A stretch of 64,000 nt of DNA from Escherichia coli. GTDB lineage: Bacteria > Pseudomonadota > Gammaproteobacteria > Enterobacterales > Enterobacteriaceae. The position numbers and the translations under genes were made by a program. The notes beneath the pieces are model-generated. The model saw only the letters and a program-made list of their open reading frames with translations. It searched no databases and was not told where the DNA came from. Each line of letters starts with the position of its first letter. Position 1 is the stretch's first letter. Of the stretch, positions 2,806-43,445 are shown piece by piece. The stretch lies in assembly GCF_024223415.1 (NCBI RefSeq), contig NZ_CP100500.1. One strand, given 5' to 3'.

Positions 2806-3858
2806 CTAAACCGGCGCGCCAGTGCGTAACTGCTGTAACAAACGCTCCACGGGAGCCGCCAGGCCAACTGACGGCGGTTGCGCTAAGTTATACCAGAGCG
2901 CATTGCCTTCATCCATGCAGCCGGTGAATGACGACACGGGAAGCCACATAGGCACAATATCTAAGTGGAAATGGCTGAAGGTATGCCGAAACGCGGTCAG
3001 CTGCGTCAGGTTATCGGCAGCAATCTGCCGTTGCGCCAGCCACTGCCGCAAACTTTCTTCGTCGGCAAACTGCGGGAAACAGTATAAACCGCCCCACAAT
3101 CCGCTCGGCGGACGCTGCGCCAGCAATACTTCATCTTCGTGCTGTAACAGGAGAAAGTAGCCGGTGCGCTCCGGCAGCGTCTGTTTCGGTTTTTTGCCCG
3201 GATAAAGCGACCAGCTATTGTTGGTGGCGGCAATACATCCGTTTTGTAGCGGACAGAGCGAACATTTCGGCTTCGAACGCGTGCAAATCATCGCGCCCAA
3301 ATCCATCATCGCCTGATTAAACCGTTCCACGCCGACCGCGGGCGTCACCTGCTCGCTTAAACTCCATAATTTATTCTCGACCTCTTTTTTCCCAGGCCAG
3401 CCGCTTACAGCATAGCAGCGCGCCAGCACCCGTTTGACGTTACCGTCGAGAATCGGAAAGTGCTTACCCAGAGAAAGCGAGAGAATCGCGCCTGCGGTGG
3501 AACGCCCGACGCCCGGCAGTGCTGCAACTTCCTCAAAGGTTTCCGGGAATATACCGCCGTGTAAGGTCGCCACTTGTTGTGCCGCTTTATGCAGATTGCG
3601 CGCGCGGGCGTAATAGCCAAGCCCGGTCCACAAGTGGAGAACTTCGTCGAGCGGCGCATTGGCGAGATCGGTCACCGTCGGGAAGCGCGCCATAAAGCGT
3701 TCAAAATAGGGGATAACGGTCGCAACCTGAGTTTGTTGCAACATCACTTCTGAGAGCCATACTTTGTAGGGCGTCTTGTCAATTTGCCAGGGCAGAGTTT
3801 TTCGCCCGTATTTATCGTACCAGTCCAGAACCTGGGCTGAAAATTGCGACGCTTGCAT
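2806..3858 (-). CDS. mutY: adenine DNA glycosylase MutY
   Basis: Translation [45 protein letters not shown]...; internal Met chosen as start (the ORF track gives a longer upstream frame). Confidence 0.93.
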
Positions 3859-4018
3859 GGTCACCGAATTCACTGTTGTTGGGGGCAAGATTGCAGCACA
3901 GCGACGGCAGGGTGTAAACCGGAACTTTCCGCAGCCACGGCCTTATCATGCTTGCATCCGGCAACTAACTTTGGATAATGCCCGTTTTCAGAACACTTTC
4001 ACAAGCGACTAAATCTTT

Positions 4019-4738
4019 ATGAAAAACGACGTCATTTCACCGGAATTTGATGAAAACGGCCGCCCACTGCGCCGTATCCGTAGTTTTGTGCGCCGCCAGG
4101 GGCGACTGACCAAAGGCCAGGAACATGCGCTGGAAAACTACTGGCCGGTGATGGGCGTTGAGTTCAGCGAAGATATGCTGGATTTCCCCGCGCTTTTTGG
4201 CCGTGAAGCGCCGGTGACGCTTGAGATTGGTTTTGGCATGGGGGCGTCGCTGGTGGCAATGGCTAAAGATCGCCCCGAGCAGGACTTCCTCGGCATTGAA
4301 GTGCATTCACCGGGCGTTGGTGCGTGCCTGGCTTCTGCGCATGAAGAGGGCTTAAGCAACCTGCGCGTGATGTGTCACGATGCGGTTGAAGTGCTGCATA
4401 AAATGATTCCTGACAATTCATTGCGCATGGTGCAGCTCTTTTTCCCTGACCCGTGGCACAAAGCGCGCCATAATAAACGCCGTATCGTTCAGGTGCCGTT
4501 TGCCGAACTGGTAAAAAGCAAACTGCAGCTGGGGGGCGTATTCCATATGGCGACCGACTGGGAACCTTATGCGGAACATATGCTTGAAGTGATGTCTTCT
4601 ATTGACGGTTATAAAAACCTGTCAGAGAGCAATGATTACGTACCGCGTCCGGCATCACGTCCGGTGACGAAATTTGAACAACGTGGTCATCGTCTTGGTC
4701 ACGGAGTATGGGACTTAATGTTCGAGAGGGTGAAATAA
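4019..4738 (+). CDS. trmB: tRNA (guanine-N7)-methyltransferase
   Basis: 239-aa [52 protein letters not shown]... Confidence 0.93.
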
Positions 4739-5064
4739 TGGCAAAGAACCGTAGCCGTCGTCTGCGTAAAAAAATGCACATCGACGAATTCCAGGAATTA
4801 GGATTTTCGGTGGCATGGCGATTCCCGGAAGGTACATCGGAAGAACAGATTGATAAAACCGTTGATGATTTTATTAACGAGGTTATCGAACCGAACAAAC
4901 TGGCCTTTGACGGCAGCGGTTATCTGGCCTGGGAAGGTCTGATCTGCATGCAGGAAATCGGCAAATGCACTGAAGAACATCAGGCGATTGTGCGTAAGTG
5001 GCTGGAAGAGCGCAAACTGGATGAGGTACGCACCAGCGAACTTTTCGACGTTTGGTGGGACTAA
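4738..5064 (+). CDS. yggL: DUF469 protein YggL
   Basis: [29 protein letters not shown]...; start overlaps the trmB stop. Confidence 0.88.
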   Translation: MAKNRSRRLRKKMHIDEFQELGFSVAWRFPEGTSEEQIDKTVDDFINEVIEPNKLAFDGSGYLAWEGLICMQEIGKCTEEHQAIVRKWLEERKLDEVRTSELFDVWWD

Positions 5065-31615: not shown

Positions 31616-33004
31616 ATGGAAAACAAGTCTGCTCGTGCAAAGGTCCAGGCTTTTGGGGGCTTTTTGACTGCAATGGTCATCCCCAATATTGGTGCTTTTA
31701 TTGCCTGGGGTTTTATTACTGCGTTATTTATTCCCACCGGTTGGCTGCCTAACGAACATTTCGCCAAAATTGTCGGCCCGATGATTACCTATTTATTGCC
31801 CGTGATGATTGGTTCTACCGGTGGTCATCTGGTCGGCGGTAAACGCGGCGCGGTCATGGGCGGAATAGGTACTATTGGTGTGATCGTCGGCGCAGAGATC
31901 CCGATGTTCCTTGGCTCAATGATTATGGGGCCGCTCGGTGGTCTGGTCATAAAATATGTTGATAAGGCACTGGAAAAACGCATACCTGCCGGTTTTGAGA
32001 TGGTTATCAATAACTTCTCATTAGGTATCGCGGGGATGCTCCTTTGCCTGCTGGGTTTTGAAGTGATCGGCCCGGCGGTGTTAATTGCCAATACTTTCGT
32101 CAAAGAGTGTATTGAGGCGCTGGTACATGCGGGTTATCTGCCTCTGCTGTCAGTCATCAATGAACCGGCGAAAGTGCTTTTCCTTAATAATGCGATCGAT
32201 CAGGGCGTCTATTATCCGCTGGGAATGCAACAGGCTTCGGTTAACGGTAAATCCATCTTCTTTATGGTGGCCTCTAACCCAGGTCCGGGCCTGGGGCTGC
32301 TGCTGGCGTTTACCTTGTTTGGTAAAGGGATGAGTAAACGTTCTGCGCCCGGGGCGATGATTATTCACTTCCTCGGTGGGATCCACGAACTGTATTTCCC
32401 ATATGTGCTGATGAAGCCGCTGACTATTATTGCCATGATTGCGGGCGGTATGTCTGGCACCTGGATGTTTAACTTACTGGACGGTGGTCTGGTGGCTGGC
32501 CCAAGTCCGGGGTCTATCTTTGCTTACCTGGCGCTGACGCCGAAAGGTTCGTTCCTGGCGACAATTGCCGGTGTTACGGTAGGTACCCTGGTGTCCTTTG
32601 CTATCACTTCGCTGATACTGAAGATGGAAAAAACGGTGGAAACGGAGAGCGAAGATGAGTTTGCTCAGTCAGCCAATGCGGTTAAGGCGATGAAACAAGA
32701 GGGTGCATTCTCGTTAAGCAGGGTTAAGCGTATCGCCTTTGTTTGCGATGCGGGGATGGGCTCCAGTGCGATGGGCGCGACCACCTTCCGTAAACGCCTG
32801 GAAAAAGCGGGGCTGGCAATTGAAGTAAAACATTACGCCATAGAAAACGTGCCTGCGGATGCGGATATCGTCGTTACTCATGCCAGTCTGGAAGGGCGCG
32901 TGAAACGTGTGACGGATAAACCACTGATATTGATTAATAACTATATTGGCGATCCAAAACTCGACACTTTATTTAATCAATTAACCGCCGAACATAAACA
33001 CTGA
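31616..33004 (+). CDS. cmtA: mannitol-family PTS enzyme IICB (cryptic)
   Basis: 462-aa ORF MENKSARAKVQAFGGFLTAMVIPNIGAFIAWGFITALFIPTGW... Confidence 0.9.
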   Translation: MENKSARAKVQAFGGFLTAMVIPNIGAFIAWGFITALFIPTGWLPNEHFAKIVGPMITYLLPVMIGSTGGHLVGGKRGAVMGGIGTIGVIVGAEIPMFLGSMIMGPLGGLVIKYVDKALEKRIPAGFEMVINNFSLGIAGMLLCLLGFEVIGPAVLIANTFVKECIEALVHAGYLPLLSVINEPAKVLFLNNAIDQGVYYPLGMQQASVNGKSIFFMVASNPGPGLGLLLAFTLFGKGMSKRSAPGAMIIHFLGGIHELYFPYVLMKPLTIIAMIAGGMSGTWMFNLLDGGLVAGPSPGSIFAYLALTPKGSFLATIAGVTVGTLVSFAITSLILKMEKTVETESEDEFAQSANAVKAMKQEGAFSLSRVKRIAFVCDAGMGSSAMGATTFRKRLEKAGLAIEVKHYAIENVPADADIVVTHASLEGRVKRVTDKPLILINNYIGDPKLDTLFNQLTAEHKH

Positions 33005-33018
33005 TTACAGAGGTAAAA

Positions 33019-34296
33019 ATGAAAACCAAAGTTGCTGCTATTTATGGCAAGCGGGATGTCCGTCTGCGCGAATTTGAACTGCCAGAAATTACCGATAATG
33101 AATTACTGGTGAGTGTGATTTCTGACAGCGTCTGTTTATCCACCTGGAAAGCGGCGTTACTCGGTAGTGAACATAAACGCGTACCCGACGATTTAGAAAA
33201 TCATCCGGTCATTACCGGGCATGAATGTGCCGGGGTTATTGTCGAAGTGGGTAAAAATCTCACTGGCAAATATAAAAAAGGCCAGCGTTTTGTATTGCAA
33301 CCGGCGATGGGGTTACCAAGCGGATATTCAGCGGGCTACAGCTACGAATATTTTGGCGGCAATGCCACTTATATGATTATTCCCGAAATCGCCATTAATT
33401 TGGGCTGCGTATTACCGTATCACGGCTCTTATTTTGCTGCGGCGTCGCTGGCAGAGCCTATGTGCTGCATTATTGGTGCTTATCATGCCAATTATCACAC
33501 CACGCAATATGTTTATGAGCATCGCATGGGCGTCAAACCTGGCGGTAATATTGCACTGCTGGCGTGTGCAGGTCCGATGGGCATTGGCGCTATCGATTAC
33601 GCCATTAACGGCGGCATACAACCGTCGCGGGTGGTGGTGGTCGATATCGACGACAAACGTCTGGCGCAGGTACAGAAGCTGCTGCCGGTGGAACTGGCGG
33701 CCAGTAAAGGCATTGAGCTGGTGTATGTGAATACCAAAGGGATGAGCGATCCTGTCCAGATGCTGCGGGCGCTGACAGGAGATGCCGGGTTCGATGACAT
33801 TTTTGTTTATGCGGCGGTGCCTGCTGTCGTTGAGATGGCTGATGAATTACTGGCGGAAGATGGCTGTCTGAACTTCTTTGCCGGGCCGACGGATAAAAAC
33901 TTCAAAGTGCCGTTTAATTTCTACAACGTTCATTACAACAGCACGCACGTCGTCGGTACATCCGGCGGTTCAACGGGCGACATGAAAGAGGCGATTGCCC
34001 TTAGCGCCACTGGGCAGTTACAGCCGTCGTTTATGGTGACCCATATCGGTGGCCTGGATGCGGTGCCAGAAACCGTGCTCAATCTGCCGGATATCCCTGG
34101 CGGTAAAAAACTCATTTATAACGGCGTGACCATGCCGCTCACTGCCATTGCCGATTTTGCCGAAAAAGGCAAAACCGATCCGCTGTTTAAAGAGTTGGCG
34201 CGGCTGGTTGAGGAAACGCACGGCATCTGGAATGAACAGGCCGAGAAATATCTGCTGGCACAATTTGGCGTTGATATCGGGGAGGCCGCGCAATGA
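33019..34296 (+). CDS. yggP: zinc-type alcohol dehydrogenase-like protein YggP
   Basis: 425-aa ORF MKTKVAAIYGKRDVRLREFELPEITDNELLVSVISDSVCLSTWKAALLG... Confidence 0.88.
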   Translation: MKTKVAAIYGKRDVRLREFELPEITDNELLVSVISDSVCLSTWKAALLGSEHKRVPDDLENHPVITGHECAGVIVEVGKNLTGKYKKGQRFVLQPAMGLPSGYSAGYSYEYFGGNATYMIIPEIAINLGCVLPYHGSYFAAASLAEPMCCIIGAYHANYHTTQYVYEHRMGVKPGGNIALLACAGPMGIGAIDYAINGGIQPSRVVVVDIDDKRLAQVQKLLPVELAASKGIELVYVNTKGMSDPVQMLRALTGDAGFDDIFVYAAVPAVVEMADELLAEDGCLNFFAGPTDKNFKVPFNFYNVHYNSTHVVGTSGGSTGDMKEAIALSATGQLQPSFMVTHIGGLDAVPETVLNLPDIPGGKKLIYNGVTMPLTAIADFAEKGKTDPLFKELARLVEETHGIWNEQAEKYLLAQFGVDIGEAAQ

Positions 34297-35258
34297 TGTC
34301 CCTGGCGTGGCCATTATTTCGCGTTACGGAACAGGCAGCGTTGGCTGCCTGGCCGCAAACCGGATGTGGCGACAAAAATAAAATTGATGGCCTGGCGGTC
34401 ACCGCGATGCGCCAGGCATTAAACGACGTCGCTTTTCGTGGACGAGTGGTTATCGGCGAAGGAGAAATTGACCATGCGCCGATGCTGTGGATTGGCGAAG
34501 ATGTGGGCAAAGGCGATGGACCAGAAGTCGATATCGCGGTTGATCCCATTGAAGGCACGCGGATGGTGGCGATGGGGCAGAGCAATGCGCTGGCGGTCAT
34601 GGCTTTCGCCCCTCGAGATAGCCTGTTACATGCGCCCGATATGTATATGAAAAAGCTGGTTGTTAATCGACTGGCTGCCGGGGCGATTGATCTGTCTTTG
34701 CCTCTGGCGGACAACTTGCGTAACGTGGCGCGGGCGTTAGGTAAACCGCTGGACAAGCTGCGCATGGTTACGCTGGATAAACCGCGTCTGAGTGCCGCGA
34801 TTGAGGAAGCAACACAGCTGGGGGTGAAAGTTTTTGCCCTGCCGGATGGCGATGTCGCCGCCAGCGTGCTGACCTGCTGGCAGGATAATCCTTACGATGT
34901 GATGTACACCATCGGCGGTGCGCCAGAAGGCGTGATTTCTGCCTGTGCCGTTAAAGCATTAGGCGGGGATATGCAGGCCGAGCTGATTGACTTTTGTCAG
35001 GCTAAAGGGGATTACACGGAAAATCGGCAGATTGCAGAGCAGGAGCGCAAGCGTTGCAAGGCAATGGGCGTTGACGTTAACCGTGTGTACTCGCTCGATG
35101 AACTGGTGAGGGGGAACGATATCCTCTTTAGCGCTACGGGCGTCACGGGCGGCGAGTTGGTGAACGGTATCCAACAGACGGCGAATGGGGTGCGGACGCA
35201 GACATTACTGATCGGCGGCGCGGACCAAACGTGTAATATAATAGACTCCCTGCATTGA
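34293..35258 (+). CDS. yggF: fructose-1,6-bisphosphatase, class II (GlpX-like) YggF
   Basis: 321-aa ORF MMSLAWPLFRVTEQAALAAWPQTGCGDKNKIDGLAVTAMRQALNDV... Confidence 0.9.
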   Translation: MMSLAWPLFRVTEQAALAAWPQTGCGDKNKIDGLAVTAMRQALNDVAFRGRVVIGEGEIDHAPMLWIGEDVGKGDGPEVDIAVDPIEGTRMVAMGQSNALAVMAFAPRDSLLHAPDMYMKKLVVNRLAAGAIDLSLPLADNLRNVARALGKPLDKLRMVTLDKPRLSAAIEEATQLGVKVFALPDGDVAASVLTCWQDNPYDVMYTIGGAPEGVISACAVKALGGDMQAELIDFCQAKGDYTENRQIAEQERKRCKAMGVDVNRVYSLDELVRGNDILFSATGVTGGELVNGIQQTANGVRTQTLLIGGADQTCNIIDSLH

Positions 35259-35279
35259 TGGTGATCTATCGGAAGACCA

Positions 35280-35789
35280 ATGGCGACGCTGACAGAAGAT
35301 GATGTGCTTGAGCAACTGGATGCACAGGACAATTTATTTTCATTTATGAAAACTGCGCATTCTATTTTGCTCCAGGGGATACGCCAGTTTCTGCCGTCGC
35401 TGTTTGTCGATAACGATGAAGAGATCGTCGAATATGCAGTGAAGCCGTTACTCGCCCAAAGCGGCCCGCTTGACGATATTGATGTCGCACTGCGTTTGAT
35501 TTATGCGCTGGGGAAAATGGATAAATGGCTGTACGCCGATATCACGCATTTTTCCCTGTTCTGGCATTACCTGAACGAACAGGATGAAGCGCCCGGATTT
35601 GCCGATGACATGACCTGGGATTTTATCAGCAACGTCAATAGCATAACCTGCAATGCGACGCTCTATGACGCGTTGAAAGCGATGAAGTTCGCCGATTTCG
35701 CCGTCTGGTCAGAGGCGCGTTTTAGCGGAATGGTCAAAACGGCGCTGACGCTGGCAGTAACGACCACCTTAAAGGAATTAACGCCGTGA
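35280..35789 (+). CDS. yggD: MtlR-like transcriptional regulator YggD
   Basis: 169-aa ORF MATLTEDDVLEQLDAQDNLFSFMKTAHSILLQGIRQF... Confidence 0.85.
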   Translation: MATLTEDDVLEQLDAQDNLFSFMKTAHSILLQGIRQFLPSLFVDNDEEIVEYAVKPLLAQSGPLDDIDVALRLIYALGKMDKWLYADITHFSLFWHYLNEQDEAPGFADDMTWDFISNVNSITCNATLYDALKAMKFADFAVWSEARFSGMVKTALTLAVTTTLKELTP

Positions 35790-36499
35790 AAATTGAATTA
35801 ACGGTGAATGGGCTGAACGTGCAAGCGCAGTACCATGATGAAGAGATAGAACGCGTGCATAAACCGTTGCTGCGTATGCTGGCGGCCTTACAGACGGTAA
35901 ATCCGCAGCGCCGAACCGTGGTTTTTCTTTGCGCTCCGCCGGGGACGGGGAAATCTACCCTAACCACCTTCTGGGAATACCTCGCGCAACAAGACCCGGA
36001 ACTGCCCGCTATTCAGACGCTGCCGATGGATGGTTTTCACCATTACAATAGCTGGCTGGATGCGCATCAATTGCGCCCCTTCAAAGGCGCACCAGATACA
36101 TTCGATGTGGCGAAACTGGCGGAAAATCTGCGCCAGGTAGTGGAAGGGGATTGTACGTGGCCGCAATACGATCGACAAAAGCATGATCCGGTTGAAGATG
36201 CGTTGCACGTTACCGCACCACTCGTCATCGTCGAAGGAAACTGGTTGTTGCTGGACGACGAGAAGTGGTGCCAGCTTGCGCAATTTTGTGATTTCTCGAT
36301 CTTTATCAACGCGCCAGCTACTGCGTTGCGGGAACGACTGGTAGGGCGCAAGCTGGCGGGAGGGGTATCGCTGGCAGATGCAGAAGCTTTTTATGACCGT
36401 ACCGACGGGCCGAATGTTCGCCGGGTGCTGGAAGAGAGTCTGCCTGCAAATTTGACTTTAATGATGACCGCTACGGGTGAATATCGTCTGGTGGATTAA
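35786..36499 (+). CDS. yggC: P-loop nucleoside/pantothenate kinase-like protein YggC
   Basis: 237-aa ORF with Walker A PPGTGKST; MKIELTVNGLNVQAQYHDEEIERVHKPLLRML... Confidence 0.88.
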   Translation: MKIELTVNGLNVQAQYHDEEIERVHKPLLRMLAALQTVNPQRRTVVFLCAPPGTGKSTLTTFWEYLAQQDPELPAIQTLPMDGFHHYNSWLDAHQLRPFKGAPDTFDVAKLAENLRQVVEGDCTWPQYDRQKHDPVEDALHVTAPLVIVEGNWLLLDDEKWCQLAQFCDFSIFINAPATALRERLVGRKLAGGVSLADAEAFYDRTDGPNVRRVLEESLPANLTLMMTATGEYRLVD

Positions 36500-37148
36500 C
36501 GTTCCTGATTAGACCATCTTCCAGTCGCACCACACGAGAGAAATGACGCCGGGTAAATGCGGCGTCATGACTGATTGCTACGACGCTCGTGCCTCGCTGG
36601 CGGCACTTCTCCAGCCAGCTTTCAAACACGCTCAACCAATTTTCGTCAAAATCCCGACTCGGCTCGTCCAGCAGCAATAGTGGCGGAGAGAGTGCTTCCA
36701 GGCAGGCGACGGCGACCATCCGTCGCTGCGCACTATGCAGATCCAACGGGTGCGCGTTGGCAGTGTCTGCTAACTGACAACATTGCAGGGCAGCATGGGT
36801 ACGTTGAGTGATTTCATCCGCCGGGCATTTTTGCAGTTTCAAACCAAATGCGATCTCGTCAGCGACGGTGCTGTGAAAAAGTTGGTTTTCCGCTTCCTGA
36901 AACAGTACGCCAATCTTTGCCGCGCGCTGGCGGTTTTTCAGGTTTTTCATCGCCTGTTGTTGCAGCATAACCGTACCGGCTGTGGGCGTAAGAAGACCTG
37001 CCATTACTCGTAACAGCGTCGATTTCCCTGCGCCATTGTCGCCGGTCAGCGCCAACCATTCACCTTGTTTGAGTTGCAGAGAAATGTCGCAAAGACAATC
37101 CGTTGCCGCGCCAGGCCAGCGATAAGATATCTGATTTAACGTTAACAT
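36471..37148 (-). CDS. ABC/ECF-type ATPase subunit with degenerate signature and Walker B motifs (EcfA'-like)
   Basis: MLTLNQISYRW...; Walker A GDNGAGKST, signature position reads LHSAQRR instead of LSGGQ, Walker B LLLLDEPS; its 3' end overlaps the yggC 3' end convergently. Confidence 0.7.
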   Translation of the reverse strand: MLTLNQISYRWPGAATDCLCDISLQLKQGEWLALTGDNGAGKSTLLRVMAGLLTPTAGTVMLQQQAMKNLKNRQRAAKIGVLFQEAENQLFHSTVADEIAFGLKLQKCPADEITQRTHAALQCCQLADTANAHPLDLHSAQRRMVAVACLEALSPPLLLLDEPSRDFDENWLSVFESWLEKCRQRGTSVVAISHDAAFTRRHFSRVVRLEDGLIRNVNPPDDIHP

Positions 37149-37825
37149 AGTGGCTGGAGCGCTCCGTTTTGCAATTGCCACGCTTGCTGGCAGTAGTTCA
37201 GGAAAGGTGTGCGATGACGTTCAAAAAGAATAATCAGCGAACCACGTTCAAACGCCCAGTGTTGTAAGCGCTGCAACAGCATTTCGCTGGCCTGCGGCGT
37301 CAGGCGGCTAAAGGCTTCATCAAGAATTAATAGCTTTGGCTGCATCGCGATGGCGCAGGCGATGACCACGCGCTGTGTCTCTCCACCGGAGAGTGTTGCC
37401 GGGTGACGATGGCGCAACGGCTGGCACTCGGTCAGAGTCAGGGCGGCATCAATCCGAGCCATAATCTCTGCTTCAGCAAGACACAGATTTTCTGGCCCAA
37501 AGGCAACTTCTTCTTCCACGCTAAAGGTACAGCCGGAGAGCTGCAAATAGGGCGATTGCTGGACGAGCTGGATGGTGGCGGATTGTTCATTAAGCGGGAG
37601 ATGCCCAATGGGCGTACCGAGGAGCGTCCCCGTGCCTGTTATCTCTCCTGGCAGAAAGTCCGGATACCAGCCCGCCATCAGCTGTGCCAGCGTACTTTTG
37701 CCACTGCCGTTGTCACCAAAGATGGCGACCATCCCCGGTTTGACATAGTGAAAGTCATAACAGAACGGAGGATGTGTTGAGTGTGTCGGGCAATAACGGA
37801 ACTGTTCTAACGTAACCATATCCAC
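37142..37825 (-). CDS. ABC/ECF-type ATPase subunit (EcfA-like)
   Basis: Walker A GDNGSGKST, signature LSGGETQR, Walker B LLILDEA; start overlaps the preceding gene. Confidence 0.75.
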   Translation of the reverse strand: MDMVTLEQFRYCPTHSTHPPFCYDFHYVKPGMVAIFGDNGSGKSTLAQLMAGWYPDFLPGEITGTGTLLGTPIGHLPLNEQSATIQLVQQSPYLQLSGCTFSVEEEVAFGPENLCLAEAEIMARIDAALTLTECQPLRHRHPATLSGGETQRVVIACAIAMQPKLLILDEAFSRLTPQASEMLLQRLQHWAFERGSLIILFERHRTPFLNYCQQAWQLQNGALQPLC

Positions 37826-38514
37826 GCTCCGAATTCTGTCAGCATCAGCAAGATCATGGTGTAACGCGCTACGCGTTGTAGGGTGCTATCGGCTGGTGCC
37901 CACAACGTTGTTCGTCGATTGTGGATCCGAAATGCCCGCATATCCAGCGCCGCACCACGGACAGCAAGATCGTTTAGCGCATTGTGTGTTAGCGGAATAA
38001 TTAACGCGGGCATCGCACGTAAACGCTGATACCAGCCCTCATCCAGCGGCACGCCGCGGGCACGCTGCGCTTCATGAATAATCGCTAATTGCCGTTTTAA
38101 CTGCTCAACGACCAATAACGGCCCGGCAAACAGATAAGCGACGCCTGGCGGCAGGCGAGAAGCAAACAGAGCGCGGATAAAACATTGCACGGGGACGTAC
38201 TGCATCCACAACTGTGAGGTTGAAACAATCGCCAGAATCCGCAACCAGAGCGTAATAGCATGCGTCCAACGCTCCGGCGAACGCGGCGTGCCGCTTAGCC
38301 ATTCTGTTAGCCAGCCACCGTGTACCAGCCACAGCCCGGCTCCCAGCGAGAACATCAGCCAGACGACATATTTTGCCCGCCGCCGCGTGGCCTTTAGCGC
38401 AATAAGGCAGAAAAAGGTCGCCGCGCTATAGATCGGCAAAATGGTCTGCGCGGGCAGGATAAGCGTGGTGCAGGCCGCCAATGCCCACAGTGTTAATGAG
38501 GTAAATGGATGCAT
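37807..38514 (-). CDS. ECF transporter transmembrane T component (CbiQ/EcfT family)
   Basis: 235-aa polytopic membrane ORF with C-terminal Arg-rich coupling-helix region (...AIIHEAQRARGVPLDEGWYQRLRAMP...). Confidence 0.65.
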   Translation of the reverse strand: MHPFTSLTLWALAACTTLILPAQTILPIYSAATFFCLIALKATRRRAKYVVWLMFSLGAGLWLVHGGWLTEWLSGTPRSPERWTHAITLWLRILAIVSTSQLWMQYVPVQCFIRALFASRLPPGVAYLFAGPLLVVEQLKRQLAIIHEAQRARGVPLDEGWYQRLRAMPALIIPLTHNALNDLAVRGAALDMRAFRIHNRRTTLWAPADSTLQRVARYTMILLMLTEFGAWIWLR

Positions 38515-39093
38515 TTAGCGCACGGCAGCCATTGCCGGAAAATGGCGCGTGGTGCGAATCGGCAGCTGGCGCAGTAAAAGCCAGACAATCACCGCTGTAA
38601 GAGTTTTATCGACCAGGTTCGCGCCTATCACCGTAATCGCCACCGACTCCACCAGGTTTTGCCCCATCGAGTGCATCCAGGCAACGAACAAATCGGCTCC
38701 GCTACCGGTGACACCGCCGAACAGCGCAGTACGCAGCGGTACAGCGACGACCGTTACCGCAAGCGTAATAATCACGCCGCTGACAACGACTTTTGGCAGG
38801 GTGCGGAACCAACCCGCTCGCGCCAGCCAACCGGCGACCAGGCCGATGACCATCGCCACGGGCGCAAATGCGGCGGCGATCGGGTCGGTCAGCAATCCCC
38901 AGAGTAAATTGGTCAGTAAACCGGTCAGCATCCCGATCACCGGACCAAGCAGTACCGCGCTAATAAGTGTGCCGATGGAGTCGAGAAATATAGGTAATTT
39001 GACCATGCTGGCCAGTTGCCCGCCGATCATATTGATGGCGATAGATATAACGATTAACACCAGCGCCTGACTGGAAAAGTGGCTACGCGCCAT
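38515..39093 (-). CDS. ECF transporter substrate-specific S component (small integral membrane protein)
   Basis: 192-aa hydrophobic ORF MARSHFSSQALVLIVISIAINMIGGQLASMVKLPIFLDSIGTLISAVLLGP...; GAGAGG ribosome-binding site 7 nt upstream of this Met; stop abuts the T-component start. Confidence 0.6.
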   Translation of the reverse strand: MARSHFSSQALVLIVISIAINMIGGQLASMVKLPIFLDSIGTLISAVLLGPVIGMLTGLLTNLLWGLLTDPIAAAFAPVAMVIGLVAGWLARAGWFRTLPKVVVSGVIITLAVTVVAVPLRTALFGGVTGSGADLFVAWMHSMGQNLVESVAITVIGANLVDKTLTAVIVWLLLRQLPIRTTRHFPAMAAVR

Positions 39094-39115
39094 AAGAAAA
39101 CCTCTCTGAAAGTAG

Positions 39116-39547
39116 TTATTTAACGGGGGAAATATGCAACTCGTCGTAACCAGAAAGCGCGCAAGGTTGGCGGCTAAACGCCAGTTCCTCAAGGCTACCG
39201 ATCACCAGTTCAAGCGTGGTCCGCACGGTACAGCCGGGCATCATATGACCGCCAAGCATCGTGCCGTGTGGATCGGAAACGCAGAGATGAAGATGCTCAC
39301 CACTCTGTTCCAACGTGCCGTTTAGTGAGATCACTTCGAATGTACCGTTCAGGAGCGTGGTGCCTTCTTGCCCGGCATAGCGCAAGGCGATGTCAGTCAG
39401 GCTACCGGTACAGCCTGCAATCCAGGCGGCATGAAGTTGCTGCTGCTGTGCAAAAGCGTGTAGCTGGGAAAAAACTTCCTGCCCGGGGAGGAGGCGCAGT
39501 GCGTAAAAGCGTGCGGAGGAAGAATATGGGTAGGGCAATGTCATCAT
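39116..39547 (-). CDS. PPC/DUF296-domain protein (AT-hook-less PPC DNA-binding-like), first gene of the ECF-type operon
   Basis: 143-aa ORF MMTLPYPYSSSARFYALRLLPGQEVFSQLHAFAQQQQLHAAWIAGCTGSLTD...; family assignment from memory of DUF296 proteins. Confidence 0.5.
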   Translation of the reverse strand: MMTLPYPYSSSARFYALRLLPGQEVFSQLHAFAQQQQLHAAWIAGCTGSLTDIALRYAGQEGTTLLNGTFEVISLNGTLEQSGEHLHLCVSDPHGTMLGGHMMPGCTVRTTLELVIGSLEELAFSRQPCALSGYDELHISPVK

Positions 39548-39918
39548 TGGAGTACTCCGAAACTCGGACGTATTGCGGATAATATCGACGCTGCATCAGT
39601 CATATTCTGATATAAGTCAGGGTTTGTGACGGCACAACGAAAAGATTTTGCTACGCTTATTCGTGATTCTGCAAAGTGGAATAAATTCCACAGGGGCGGG
39701 GCTGAAAACGTGACGTAAGTCAGATAATTGTCTTCTTTGACTGGACAATCATTCCTTTTATTCCACGTTTCGCTTATCCTAGCTGAAGCGTTTCAGTCGA
39801 TTAAATGTTCGACAATTAACCAATCAGTCGCAGTTTGCGACAGGTAAGGTTTCCCCGGACGATTTGCTGGATTACTCTGTCTGGCAAATTTGCTCAGGGA
39901 AAACCTTGCAGGAGATCT

Positions 39919-40938
39919 ATGACCGTACGCGTAGCGATAAATGGCTTCGGTCGCATCGGGCGTAATGTGGTTCGTGCTTTGTATGAATCCGGACGCCGGG
40001 CGGAAATTACCGTGGTGGCAATCAACGAACTGGCGGATGCTGCGGGCATGGCGCATTTGTTGAAATATGACACCAGCCATGGCCGTTTTGCATGGGAAGT
40101 ACGACAGGAACGCGATCAACTTTTTGTTGGTGATGACGCCATCCGCGTATTGCATGAACGTTCACTGCAATCGCTCCCCTGGCGTGAACTTGGCGTTGAT
40201 GTAGTCCTCGACTGCACCGGCGTATATGGCTCCCGCGAGCATGGCGAAGCGCATATTGCCGCCGGGGCCAAAAAAGTGCTCTTTTCACATCCTGGCAGTA
40301 ACGATCTCGACGCGACCGTTGTTTACGGCGTCAATCAGGATCAACTTCGTGCGGAACACCGCATCGTTTCTAACGCTTCCTGTACCACGAATTGCATAAT
40401 TCCCGTCATCAAATTGTTAGATGATGCGTACGGTATTGAGTCCGGCACTGTGACCACAATTCACTCCGCCATGCACGATCAACAGGTTATTGATGCATAC
40501 CATCCTGACCTGCGTCGCACCCGGGCAGCCAGCCAGTCGATCATTCCGGTCGATACTAAACTGGCCGCCGGTATCACACGATTTTTTCCGCAATTTAACG
40601 ATCGCTTTGAAGCGATTGCGGTACGTGTGCCAACCATAAATGTGACGGCAATCGATTTAAGCGTGACGGTGAAGAAACCTGTAAAAGCCAATGAAGTCAA
40701 CCTGTTGCTGCAAAAAGCAGCACAAGGTGCATTTCATGGTATAGTTGACTATACGGAATTGCCGTTGGTCTCTGTAGATTTTAACCACGATCCGCACAGT
40801 GCCATTGTCGATGGCACCCAAACCCGGGTCAGTGGCGCACACCTGATCAAAACGTTGGTCTGGTGCGATAACGAATGGGGCTTTGCTAACCGAATGCTCG
40901 ACACGACGTTAGCTATGGCTACTGTTGCTTTCAGGTAA
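39919..40938 (+). CDS. epd: D-erythrose-4-phosphate dehydrogenase
   Basis: [55 protein letters not shown]...; internal Met chosen. Confidence 0.95.
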
Positions 40939-40987
40939 GACGCAAGCAGCGTCTGCAAAACTTTTAGAATCAACGAGAGGATTCACC

Positions 40988-42151
40988 ATGTCTGTAATTA
41001 AGATGACCGATCTGGATCTTGCTGGGAAACGTGTATTTATCCGTGCGGATCTGAACGTACCAGTAAAAGACGGGAAAGTAACCAGCGACGCGCGTATCCG
41101 TGCTTCTCTGCCGACCATCGAACTGGCCCTGAAACAAGGCGCAAAAGTGATGGTAACTTCCCACCTGGGTCGTCCTACCGAAGGCGAGTACAACGAAGAA
41201 TTCTCTCTGCTGCCGGTTGTTAACTACCTGAAAGACAAACTGTCTAACCCGGTTCGTCTGGTTAAAGATTACCTCGACGGCGTTGACGTTGCTGAAGGTG
41301 AACTGGTTGTTCTGGAAAACGTTCGCTTCAACAAAGGCGAGAAGAAAGACGACGAAACCCTGTCCAAAAAATACGCTGCACTGTGTGACGTGTTCGTAAT
41401 GGACGCATTCGGTACTGCTCACCGCGCGCAGGCTTCTACTCACGGTATCGGTAAATTCGCTGACGTTGCGTGCGCAGGCCCGCTGCTGGCAGCTGAACTG
41501 GACGCGCTGGGTAAAGCACTGAAAGAACCTGCTCGCCCGATGGTGGCTATCGTTGGTGGTTCTAAAGTATCTACCAAACTGACCGTTCTGGACTCCCTGT
41601 CTAAAATCGCTGACCAGCTGATTGTTGGTGGTGGTATCGCTAACACCTTTATCGCGGCACAAGGCCACGATGTGGGTAAATCCCTGTACGAAGCTGACCT
41701 GGTTGACGAAGCAAAACGTCTGCTGACCACCTGCAACATCCCGGTTCCGTCTGATGTTCGCGTAGCAACCGAGTTCTCTGAAACCGCTCCGGCTACCCTG
41801 AAATCTGTTAACGACGTGAAAGCTGACGAGCAGATCCTGGATATCGGTGATGCTTCCGCTCAGGAACTGGCTGAAATCCTGAAGAATGCGAAAACCATTC
41901 TGTGGAACGGTCCGGTTGGCGTGTTCGAATTCCCGAACTTCCGCAAAGGTACTGAAATCGTGGCTAACGCTATCGCAGACAGCGAAGCGTTCTCCATCGC
42001 TGGCGGCGGCGACACTCTGGCAGCAATCGACCTGTTCGGCATTGCTGACAAAATTTCCTACATCTCCACTGGCGGCGGCGCATTCCTCGAATTCGTGGAA
42101 GGTAAAGTACTGCCTGCAGTAGCGATGCTCGAAGAGCGCGCTAAGAAGTAA
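40988..42151 (+). CDS. pgk: phosphoglycerate kinase
   Basis: [48 protein letters not shown]... Confidence 0.96.
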
Positions 42152-42365
42152 AAAATCACAGGGCAGGGAAACCTGCCCTTGTTTCAGCGCGCTTTTAGAG
42201 CACGCATTTTTTCATACTCTAAATAATTCGAGTTGCAGGAAGGCGACAAGAGAGTGAATCCCCAGGAGCTTACATAAGTAAGTGACTGGGGTGAGCGAAC
42301 GCAGACGCAGCACATGCAACTTGAAGTATGACGAGTATAAGGCCCGACGATACAGGACAAGAGAC

Positions 42366-43445
42366 ATGTCTAAGATTTTTGATTTCGTAAAACCTGGCGT
42401 AATCACTGGTGATGACGTACAGAAAGTTTTCCAGGTAGCAAAAGAAAACAACTTCGCACTGCCAGCAGTAAACTGCGTCGGTACTGACTCCATCAACGCC
42501 GTACTGGAAACCGCTGCTAAAGTTAAAGCGCCGGTTATCGTTCAGTTCTCCAACGGTGGTGCTTCCTTTATCGCTGGTAAAGGCGTGAAATCTGACGTTC
42601 CGCAGGGTGCTGCTATCCTGGGCGCGATCTCTGGTGCGCATCACGTTCACCAGATGGCTGAACATTATGGTGTTCCGGTTATCCTGCACACTGACCACTG
42701 CGCGAAGAAACTGCTGCCGTGGATCGACGGTCTGCTGGACGCGGGTGAAAAACACTTCGCTGCTACCGGCAAGCCGCTGTTCTCTTCTCACATGATCGAC
42801 CTGTCTGAAGAATCTCTGCAAGAGAACATCGAAATCTGCTCTAAATACCTGGAGCGCATGTCCAAAATCGGCATGACTCTGGAAATCGAACTGGGTTGCA
42901 CCGGTGGTGAAGAAGACGGCGTGGACAACAGCCACATGGACGCTTCTGCACTGTACACCCAGCCGGAAGACGTTGATTACGCATACACCGAGCTGAGCAA
43001 AATCAGCCCGCGTTTCACCATCGCAGCGTCCTTCGGTAACGTACACGGTGTTTACAAGCCGGGTAACGTGGTTCTGACTCCGACCATCCTGCGTGATTCT
43101 CAGGAATATGTTTCTAAGAAACACAACCTGCCGCACAACAGCCTGAACTTCGTATTCCACGGTGGTTCCGGTTCTACTGCTCAGGAAATCAAAGACTCCG
43201 TAAGCTACGGCGTAGTGAAAATGAACATCGATACCGATACCCAATGGGCAACCTGGGAAGGCGTTCTGAACTACTACAAAGCGAACGAAGCTTATCTGCA
43301 GGGTCAGCTGGGTAACCCGAAAGGCGAAGATCAGCCGAACAAGAAATACTACGATCCGCGCGTATGGCTGCGTGCCGGTCAGACTTCGATGATCGCTCGT
43401 CTGGAAAAAGCATTCCAGGAACTGAACGCGATCGACGTTCTGTAA
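42366..43445 (+). CDS. fbaA: fructose-bisphosphate aldolase class II
   Basis: MSKIFDFVKPGVITGDDVQKVFQVAKENNFALPAVNCVGTDSINAVLE... Confidence 0.96.
   Translation: MSKIFDFVKPGVITGDDVQKVFQVAKENNFALPAVNCVGTDSINAVLETAAKVKAPVIVQFSNGGASFIAGKGVKSDVPQGAAILGAISGAHHVHQMAEHYGVPVILHTDHCAKKLLPWIDGLLDAGEKHFAATGKPLFSSHMIDLSEESLQENIEICSKYLERMSKIGMTLEIELGCTGGEEDGVDNSHMDASALYTQPEDVDYAYTELSKISPRFTIAASFGNVHGVYKPGNVVLTPTILRDSQEYVSKKHNLPHNSLNFVFHGGSGSTAQEIKDSVSYGVVKMNIDTDTQWATWEGVLNYYKANEAYLQGQLGNPKGEDQPNKKYYDPRVWLRAGQTSMIARLEKAFQELNAIDVL

Follow-up and report, generated by a model that had tools for sequence, protein, structure and literature searches.

Why does a block of transporter genes stand between yggC and epd in some strains of Escherichia coli and not in others, K-12 among them, and which of the two arrangements came first? 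The question is raised by a junction in a window of 64,000 nucleotides of E. coli DNA (contig NZ_CP100500.1, assembly GCF_024223415.1), which is the whole stretch that was analysed. In this window, yggC and the last gene of an ECF transporter module converge and share their final bases. A sequence-only reading of the window had proposed that the module is ancestral and was lost from K-12 rather than gained here. Comparison of the locus across E. coli, other Escherichia species and other Enterobacteriaceae leads us to a similar answer. The overlap is likely to be old and neutral, the module ancestral in Escherichia, and the K-12 type the product of a single replacement.

The Convergent Junction and the Genes around It

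The gene yggC (35786..36499, + strand) is the last of the run cmtBA-yggP-glpX(yggF)-fumE(yggD)-yggC. Its product of 237 aa is annotated by PGAP as a member of the nucleoside/nucleotide kinase family and matches the NCBIfam model NF006742 from end to end (residues 1-237, 522 bits, cutoff 402). The kinase has been predicted to be a sugar/polyol kinase (PMC3223725). The stop codon of yggC, TAA at 36497-36499, lies within the gene of the terminal ECF-type ABC ATPase on the minus strand, whose own stop, TAG, is the complement of 36471-36473. Direct reading and the listing of open reading frames (+ ORF 35786..36499, 237 aa; - ORF 36471..37181) agree that the genes have 29 bp in common (36471-36499), that is, the last nine codons and the stop of each. 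The window from 32200 to 43200 is 100% identical to strain SCU-316 (RefSeq NZ_CP054371.1), and PGAP annotates the same overlap in that record, with the kinase at 3587-4300 of the locus and the ATPase at 4272-4949. The convergent overlap first noticed from the letters is thus borne out by the stops, the ORF listing and PGAP. Within it, codon position 1 of yggC faces position 1 of the ATPase gene, position 2 faces 3, and position 3 faces 2; the ATPase tail VNPPDDIHP is read antisense to the last nine yggC codons. Both partners are real genes, as judged by the NF006742 match of YggC, the match of the ATPase to Pfam ABC_tran (97.6 bits, 1.3e-27) and the retention of both across genera.

The terminal ATPase has 225 aa from the PGAP start (36471..37148, - strand), and its maximal ORF extends to 37181. 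The next gene in the module, found by PGAP and by profile search, encodes a second ECF-type ABC ATPase of 225 aa (37142..37819, - strand) and shares 7 nt (37142-37148) and 13 nt (37807-37819) with its neighbours, which are read in the same direction. Both ATPases match ABC_tran, with only 106-150 bits to TIGR04520/04521 (cutoffs 315-330); their alignments to the ECF ATPase profiles stop at position 231 of 279 or earlier, and both lack the C-terminal region of canonical EcfA/EcfA'. The transmembrane coupling or T component (37807..38514, - strand, 235 aa) is named EcfT by PGAP and scores 21.6 bits against Pfam CbiQ (PF02361), below the cutoff of 25. The substrate-binding or S component (38515..39093, - strand) belongs to the S-component family PF12822 (33.2 bits, cutoff 30.7). 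It is nearest to the CD3073 family, and membership of that subfamily is not established because its score against the equivalog NF045596 (134.9 bits) is below the cutoff of 180. The minus-strand operon begins with a gene for a PPC/DUF296-domain protein (39116..39547, - strand; PGAP, PF03479 at 3.5e-28). The region upstream of it (39548..39658) is specific to the module and has no counterpart in empty-site genomes by alignment and blastn. The right edge of the presence/absence difference falls at about 39646-39660, and by alignment the epd upstream region (39659..39918, + strand) is common to both haplotypes. The right flank is epd itself, encoding erythrose-4-phosphate dehydrogenase (39919..40938, + strand; PGAP, protein mapping).

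The module resembles dedicated (group I) ECF transporters in that one operon encodes, in order, an S component of PF12822, a T component and two ABC ATPases. It differs from them in several respects: the ATPases are short (225 aa), lack the last ~48 profile positions and score below the equivalog cutoffs, the S component is only near the CD3073 family, and a PPC/DUF296 gene leads the operon. As for clues to the substrate, no riboswitch or other Rfam match was found within 35500-40200 at E <= 1. A literature search for yggC and CD3073 returned no description of the module polymorphism or of the S component.

Two short elements were seen in the epd upstream region. In module-bearing Escherichia, a perfect palindrome, GTGGAATAAATTCCAC, occupies 39676-39691. 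The sequence GCTGAAGCGTTTCAGTC follows it by ~90 nt (39782-39798) and presumably resembles a Cra/FruR box.

Distribution of the Module in Escherichia coli

The module is present in 3,317 of 5,426 complete E. coli genomes (61%), including IAI1, O104:H4, O157:H7, UMN026 and 81009. The window-type 3' end of yggC was found in 3,320 of the same genomes, and the K-12-type 3' end with its spacer in 2,089, MG1655 among them. The yggC 3' allele and the module go together almost without exception. The gene has 237 codons in either type of strain; of the residues that differ between the products, 8 fall within the first 161 and 30 within the last 76. Among module-bearing strains, identity of the yggC 3' ends goes down to 93.7%, and the haplotype must therefore be old within E. 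coli.

The absence of the module from K-12 and from the other K-12-type genomes, together with the 30 differing residues at the C-terminus, might be explained by a recent gain. The module would then be an island acquired in the lineage of the window strain, and its insertion would have made a new yggC 3' end. Its properties argue against this. With GC contents of 0.547-0.564 (module) and 0.50-0.567 (flanks), the base composition is not atypical; no pair of direct repeats flanks the module, and it shows no tRNA target and no mobility genes, only those of the transporter and the PPC protein. The nucleotide identities of module and flanks, the latter taken from neighbouring non-housekeeping genes, track each other and give no sign of incongruent histories: 91-97% and 92-98%, respectively, between the window and E. 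coli 81009, 90-97% and 90-98% for E. albertii, and 72-78% and 74-83% for Citrobacter; in the comparison with E. whittamii, too, the module follows its flanks. YggC of the window matches its family profile over the whole length, and its C-terminus is common to four other Escherichia species. Furthermore, the same junction recurs in the same frame in eight genera. Taken with this evidence, recent gain is extremely improbable.

The alignment of the yggC 3' ends of the window strain and K-12, which the sequence-only reading had suggested, was carried out and gave the 30 differences in 76 residues. That reading would have abandoned the idea of an ancestral module if the yggC C-terminus here differed in a way showing that insertion had created a new end. 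A new end does exist, but it is K-12 that carries it. The window-type C-terminus is 88-96% identical to those of other Escherichia species, while the K-12 type is ~61-62% identical to all of them.

The Junction in Other Genera

A peptide-pattern scan for YggC in one genome per GTDB species retrieved 67 loci, onto which the window proteins were mapped; E. fergusonii, E. marmotae and E. ruysiae were not among the loci retrieved. E. albertii and E. whittamii have the full module between yggC and epd, oriented as in the window. Six Citrobacter species (C. freundii, C. werkmanii and C. koseri among them), Silvania, two Superficieibacter, the metagenome-assembled genome UBA5654, Phytobacter and Atlantibacter have it at the same site and in the same direction. 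In each of these module-bearing genomes yggC overlaps the ATPase gene (17 of 17 in eight genera, made up of 16 of 16 loci in seven genera and Atlantibacter). The overlap is 29 bp long in Escherichia, 44 bp in the C. freundii complex and Atlantibacter, 68 bp in C. koseri, 26 bp in Silvania, 41 bp in Superficieibacter, 92 bp in UBA5654 and 11 bp in Phytobacter. All of these lengths are 2 mod 3, and the relative frame of the two genes is constant; the junction is therefore a single homologous one and not the result of repeated insertions. It is an old feature of the Enterobacteriaceae, older than the genus Escherichia, in which the positions of the stops alone drift, by multiples of three.

The empty state is widespread as well. 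The yggC-epd site is empty in the Buttiauxella outgroup and in many genera, and Citrobacter and Escherichia each include both states. At the depth of the family, the module-bearing and the empty state are both old. Within Escherichia, the ancestral state is most likely the module-bearing arrangement, overlap included. The proposal that the module is ancestral and was lost from K-12 is in this respect upheld by the comparative evidence of species distribution, deletion scars and C-termini. The argument from which it had started, that tight packing is more typical of ancestral gene order, is not what carries the conclusion; the decisive evidence is comparative and not the packing as such.

Other Arrangements and Doubtful Assemblies

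In Buttiauxella sp. B2 (L052, 1-884 and 1356-6690), ecfS and PPC genes stand directly upstream of cmtB and are divergent from it. The module thus lies on the other side of the cmtBA-yggP-glpX-fumE-yggC cluster, and the yggC-epd site of this genome is empty. It is a second, different physical link of the module to the cmt-ygg cluster.

A further arrangement was observed at locus L073 (7550-10645; GCA_033992055.1), where the module lies between epd and tkt and the cmtBA-yggPFDC cluster is entirely absent. The name Salmonella for this locus comes solely from how NCBI labels a single assembly and a single protein cluster (protein: Salmonella enterica). The 42-nt spacer between its ATPase gene and tkt holds a GC hairpin with A and T runs, which is likely a bidirectional terminator, to judge from its sequence.

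Two assemblies call for caution. The metagenome-assembled genome 'Citrobacter sp. HRGM_Genome_0066' has two yggC loci (L004 and L019). One, on a contig of 4.5 kb, has 94-99% identity to the Escherichia module type, and this short contig probably contaminates the bin from Escherichia; the other, on a long contig, is empty and resembles Citrobacter. In 'Chryseobacterium sp. 18061' (L024), an enterobacterial cmt-ygg-epd locus is ~91% identical to that of Citrobacter sp. 18056 (L027), and the assembly is probably mislabelled or mixed.

A possible 'transport and trap' link between a kinase and an ECF transporter was also considered in Alkalibacterium (L056, Firmicutes) and rejected. The yggC homologue there follows ecfA-ecfA'-ecfT-truA, an ECF module of the standard ribosomal-cluster kind, and the ORF that comes next encodes a secreted, non-membrane protein. 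The adjacency is read as coincidental.

Origin of the K-12-Type Empty Site

The yggC gene of K-12-type strains is, on the evidence of its sequence, a chimera whose last 77 residues are foreign. Up to nt 480, sites private to the K-12 type number 0-2 per 30 nt; from nt 481 onwards, there are 4-14 per 30 nt. This breakpoint (36266 in the window) is identical in the BL21/K-12 locus (L002) and in a divergent genome labelled E. coli (L008). The tract that appears foreign in K-12-type strains, nt 481-714, corresponds to 36266..36499 (+ strand) of the window, with the left crossover at ~36266. Over codons 151-237 of the K-12-type gene, pS is 0.81, which is saturated, and pN is 0.25. By comparison, dS before the breakpoint is 0.24, and the 3' tract of the window yggC has a dS of 0.20 to E. 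albertii. Segment-specific neighbour-joining trees point in the same direction. The N-terminal 150 residues place all eight Escherichia sequences together with 100% bootstrap. With residues 151-237, the K-12 type falls outside Escherichia and joins the module-less Lelliottia/Enterobacter weakly (42%), and its nearest neighbour is an Escherichia sequence in 13% of resamplings. The K-12-type C-terminal tract is about equally far (57-65% aa identity) from every sampled genus. No close donor for it was found among the 67 yggC loci, where the best nucleotide match outside E. coli is 68.8%, and a protein search with the K-12-type YggC C-terminus returned short fragments alone, with no information on a donor. 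The tract is itself diverse, with L002 and L008 being 89% identical.

Nothing in the window corresponds to the 63-70 nt that follow the yggC stop of K-12. Nucleotides 1-70 of this spacer match the empty sites of C. amalonaticus, a Citrobacter metagenome-assembled genome and Raoultella at ~80% identity. A search of the K-12 spacer for module remnants found none, and the matches that MAFFT placed inside the module region were dismissed as alignment noise. On the right, the foreign tract fades into the common epd upstream sequence at about 39700-39740.

The K-12/BL21-type spacer contains a conserved inverted repeat, TTATTCCAG-N27-CTGGAATAA (L002, 4305-4349). Empty sites in E. coli, C. braakii, C. 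amalonaticus and Raoultella all keep this repeat, which is not followed by a T-run. Of its two halves, the right one alone is matched in module-bearing genomes.

These features agree with those of mosaic genes formed by recombination with a divergent allele, in which the breakpoint is sharp, dS is saturated to one side of it alone and the phylogeny depends on the segment. The K-12-type case differs from such genes in that the exchange involved, besides substitutions, a structural difference of 3.2 kb, with the module on one side and a 63-nt spacer on the other. The K-12-type empty site probably arose once, by homologous recombination, in which ~3.45 kb, from yggC nt 481 through the module to the region upstream of epd, would have been swapped for ~0.35 kb of a divergent empty-site haplotype. 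The outcome would be the K-12 state, with a chimeric yggC and without the ECF transporter.

A simpler course would be a local deletion of the module followed by rapid divergence of the yggC 3' end in place. Deletions do occur at this locus. Representatives of two other Escherichia species have internal ones: MOD1-EC7003 lacks 36720-39523 of the window and E1V33 lacks ~36710-39460, and both keep a decayed 3' remnant of the ATPase gene beside an intact window-type yggC 3' end. These scars and the loss of 36471-39645 in E. coli BS-04 show that the event itself is feasible. However, the scarred genomes retain the window-type yggC 3' sequence, and yggC of BS-04 is broken. The K-12 type, on the other hand, combines pS 0.81 and pN 0.25 with an intact frame and length. 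Saturated pS, low pN and an intact frame speak of long evolution under purifying selection. In addition, the onset of divergence at nt 481 is abrupt, the spacer has homologues in empty sites of other genera, and no stepwise intermediate alleles occur among the 5,409 classified E. coli genomes. Simple deletion is therefore very unlikely. The suggestion that the K-12 junction had been remodelled is right in so far as that junction is the changed one. Deletion with local remodelling gives way to replacement by a divergent empty-site haplotype with its crossover at nt 481.

The deletion in BS-04 can be described more closely (L072, 6229-6279). It starts from the first base of the ATPase stop codon and has its right junction at 39646, and 51 nt of unrelated T-rich filler have taken the place of the module. 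In this strain, yggC is annotated as a frameshifted pseudogene.

It may also be asked whether there was a discrete import from another genus at all. Both haplotypes could form a very old trans-species polymorphism, possibly under balancing selection, that recombination has shuffled. The empty sites of different genera do have a homologous spacer with a conserved inverted repeat, the module-bearing sites have one junction frame, and both states are found within Citrobacter and within Escherichia; the diversity of the K-12-type tract (89% between L002 and L008) and the lack of a donor among the loci searched fit as well. Against this, all four sampled Escherichia species other than E. coli have the module-type yggC 3' end, and the left breakpoint of the K-12 type is sharp and common to L002 and L008, which looks like one event. 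We regard such a polymorphism as unlikely, and a single replacement on a module-bearing Escherichia background remains the preferred account.

Does the Overlap Have a Function?

The length of the overlap is by itself not above what chance would give, being the nine tail codons up to the next in-frame stop. What exceeds chance is the conservation of the junction, as the sequences compared here indicate, and not the overlap length. In eight Escherichia sequences, the overlap has 6 variable sites and the three preceding blocks of 29 nt have 3, 7 and 3, so the overlap shows no excess conservation over neighbouring DNA in this set. Every substitution within it changes one or both protein tails. The ATPase tail differs between genera, and the conserved core ends near ...RLEDGLIRN, ahead of the overlap. 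At the Salmonella-labelled locus, where yggC is absent, the ATPase homologue has 218 aa and ends in ...RLENGRLSKGE* without the tail; its gene is followed by a likely terminator composed of a GC hairpin and a T-run. In the window, the ATPase frame runs nine codons beyond the core, antisense to the end of yggC, until it meets a stop, as expected of a neutral 3' extension. The mechanism of the overlap thus appears ordinary, resting on poorly conserved tails, and the overlap does not look like a designed dual-coding element.

Random 3' extension has been offered as the explanation of convergent overlap lengths in the Kingsford 2007 model, as it is cited in PMC3887535. So far as that citation describes them, such convergent pairs resemble yggC and the ATPase gene in lying on opposite strands with only weakly conserved 3' tails in common, and in an overlap length that shifts among relatives by whole codons. 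Compared with the same description, the present pair is unlike them in two ways: the abutment is kept across at least eight genera, and the overlap marks one edge of a presence/absence polymorphism.

How transcription ends at this junction bears on a possible function. Two convergent units, cmtBA-yggP-glpX-fumE-yggC and the five-gene ECF operon, meet without a spacer, and each transcript is predicted to end inside the opposing gene. A consensus scan, which is blind to Rho-dependent sites, found no intrinsic terminator between yggC and the ATPase gene. Its single weak hit on the + strand, inside the ATPase gene (36917-36933), was not above the expectation from shuffled sequence.

Convergent transcription might on this basis couple the cmt-ygg and ECF operons via antisense RNA or transcriptional interference, which would make the overlap functional. 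The missing spacer and terminator would suit such coupling, as would the persistence of the abutment in eight genera and the Buttiauxella sp. B2 module, which adjoins the same six-gene cluster in another arrangement. The length of the overlap, however, drifts from 11 to 92 bp, and its sequence is no more conserved than its neighbours. In many genomes the ygg cluster is present and the module absent, and the reverse is true of the Salmonella-labelled genome. We consider a functional overlap improbable.

A broader proposal would take yggC-epd as a long-lived two-state locus of the Enterobacteriaceae that is kept by selection. The persistent link between the ECF module and cmtBA-yggPFDC, which is convergent in most genera and divergent-upstream in Buttiauxella sp. 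B2, would then reflect a common pathway, the ECF transporter would import a compound that the YggC kinase or YggP/YggF/FumE process, and the abutting 3' ends would give antisense cross-talk. This proposal is unlikely. An old, neutral overlap at a homologous junction is the reading we retain.

Implications for K-12 and YggC

As a routine matter, E. coli K-12 is regarded as free of ECF transporters and serves as a clean background for studying them. At the yggC-epd locus, this reference strain represents a derived, remodelled state, and it lacks an ECF-type transporter that 61% of complete E. coli genomes encode. Work on YggC should note that E. coli has two alleles of the protein, whose last 77 residues have an identity of only ~61%. 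As a point of method, junction homology can be marked cheaply by the frame of a gene overlap. The chimeric yggC of K-12, the two-state locus across genera and the ECF-type transporter in most E. coli are modestly useful additions. They do not overturn current understanding, and the result is tidy and unsurprising.

Further Signs of Recombination at the Locus

Exchange at this locus may extend beyond the K-12 type. The fumE-yggC-epd regions of Raoultella planticola (L017, 5001-8100) and Citrobacter braakii (L014, 5001-8100) are 89% identical in nucleotide sequence, and the yggC sequences of these two species cluster tightly. Such an identity is higher than expected between Raoultella and Citrobacter. 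The likeness hints that the empty haplotype has passed between genera.

A second small mosaic patch was observed within yggC at nt 31-90 (35816-35875). The window and the K-12 type differ at 16 sites over nt 33-94. The window also differs at 13 of the 60 positions of 35816-35875 from strain 81009, which bears the module. The pattern suggests that the 5' end of yggC may hold further recombination tracts.
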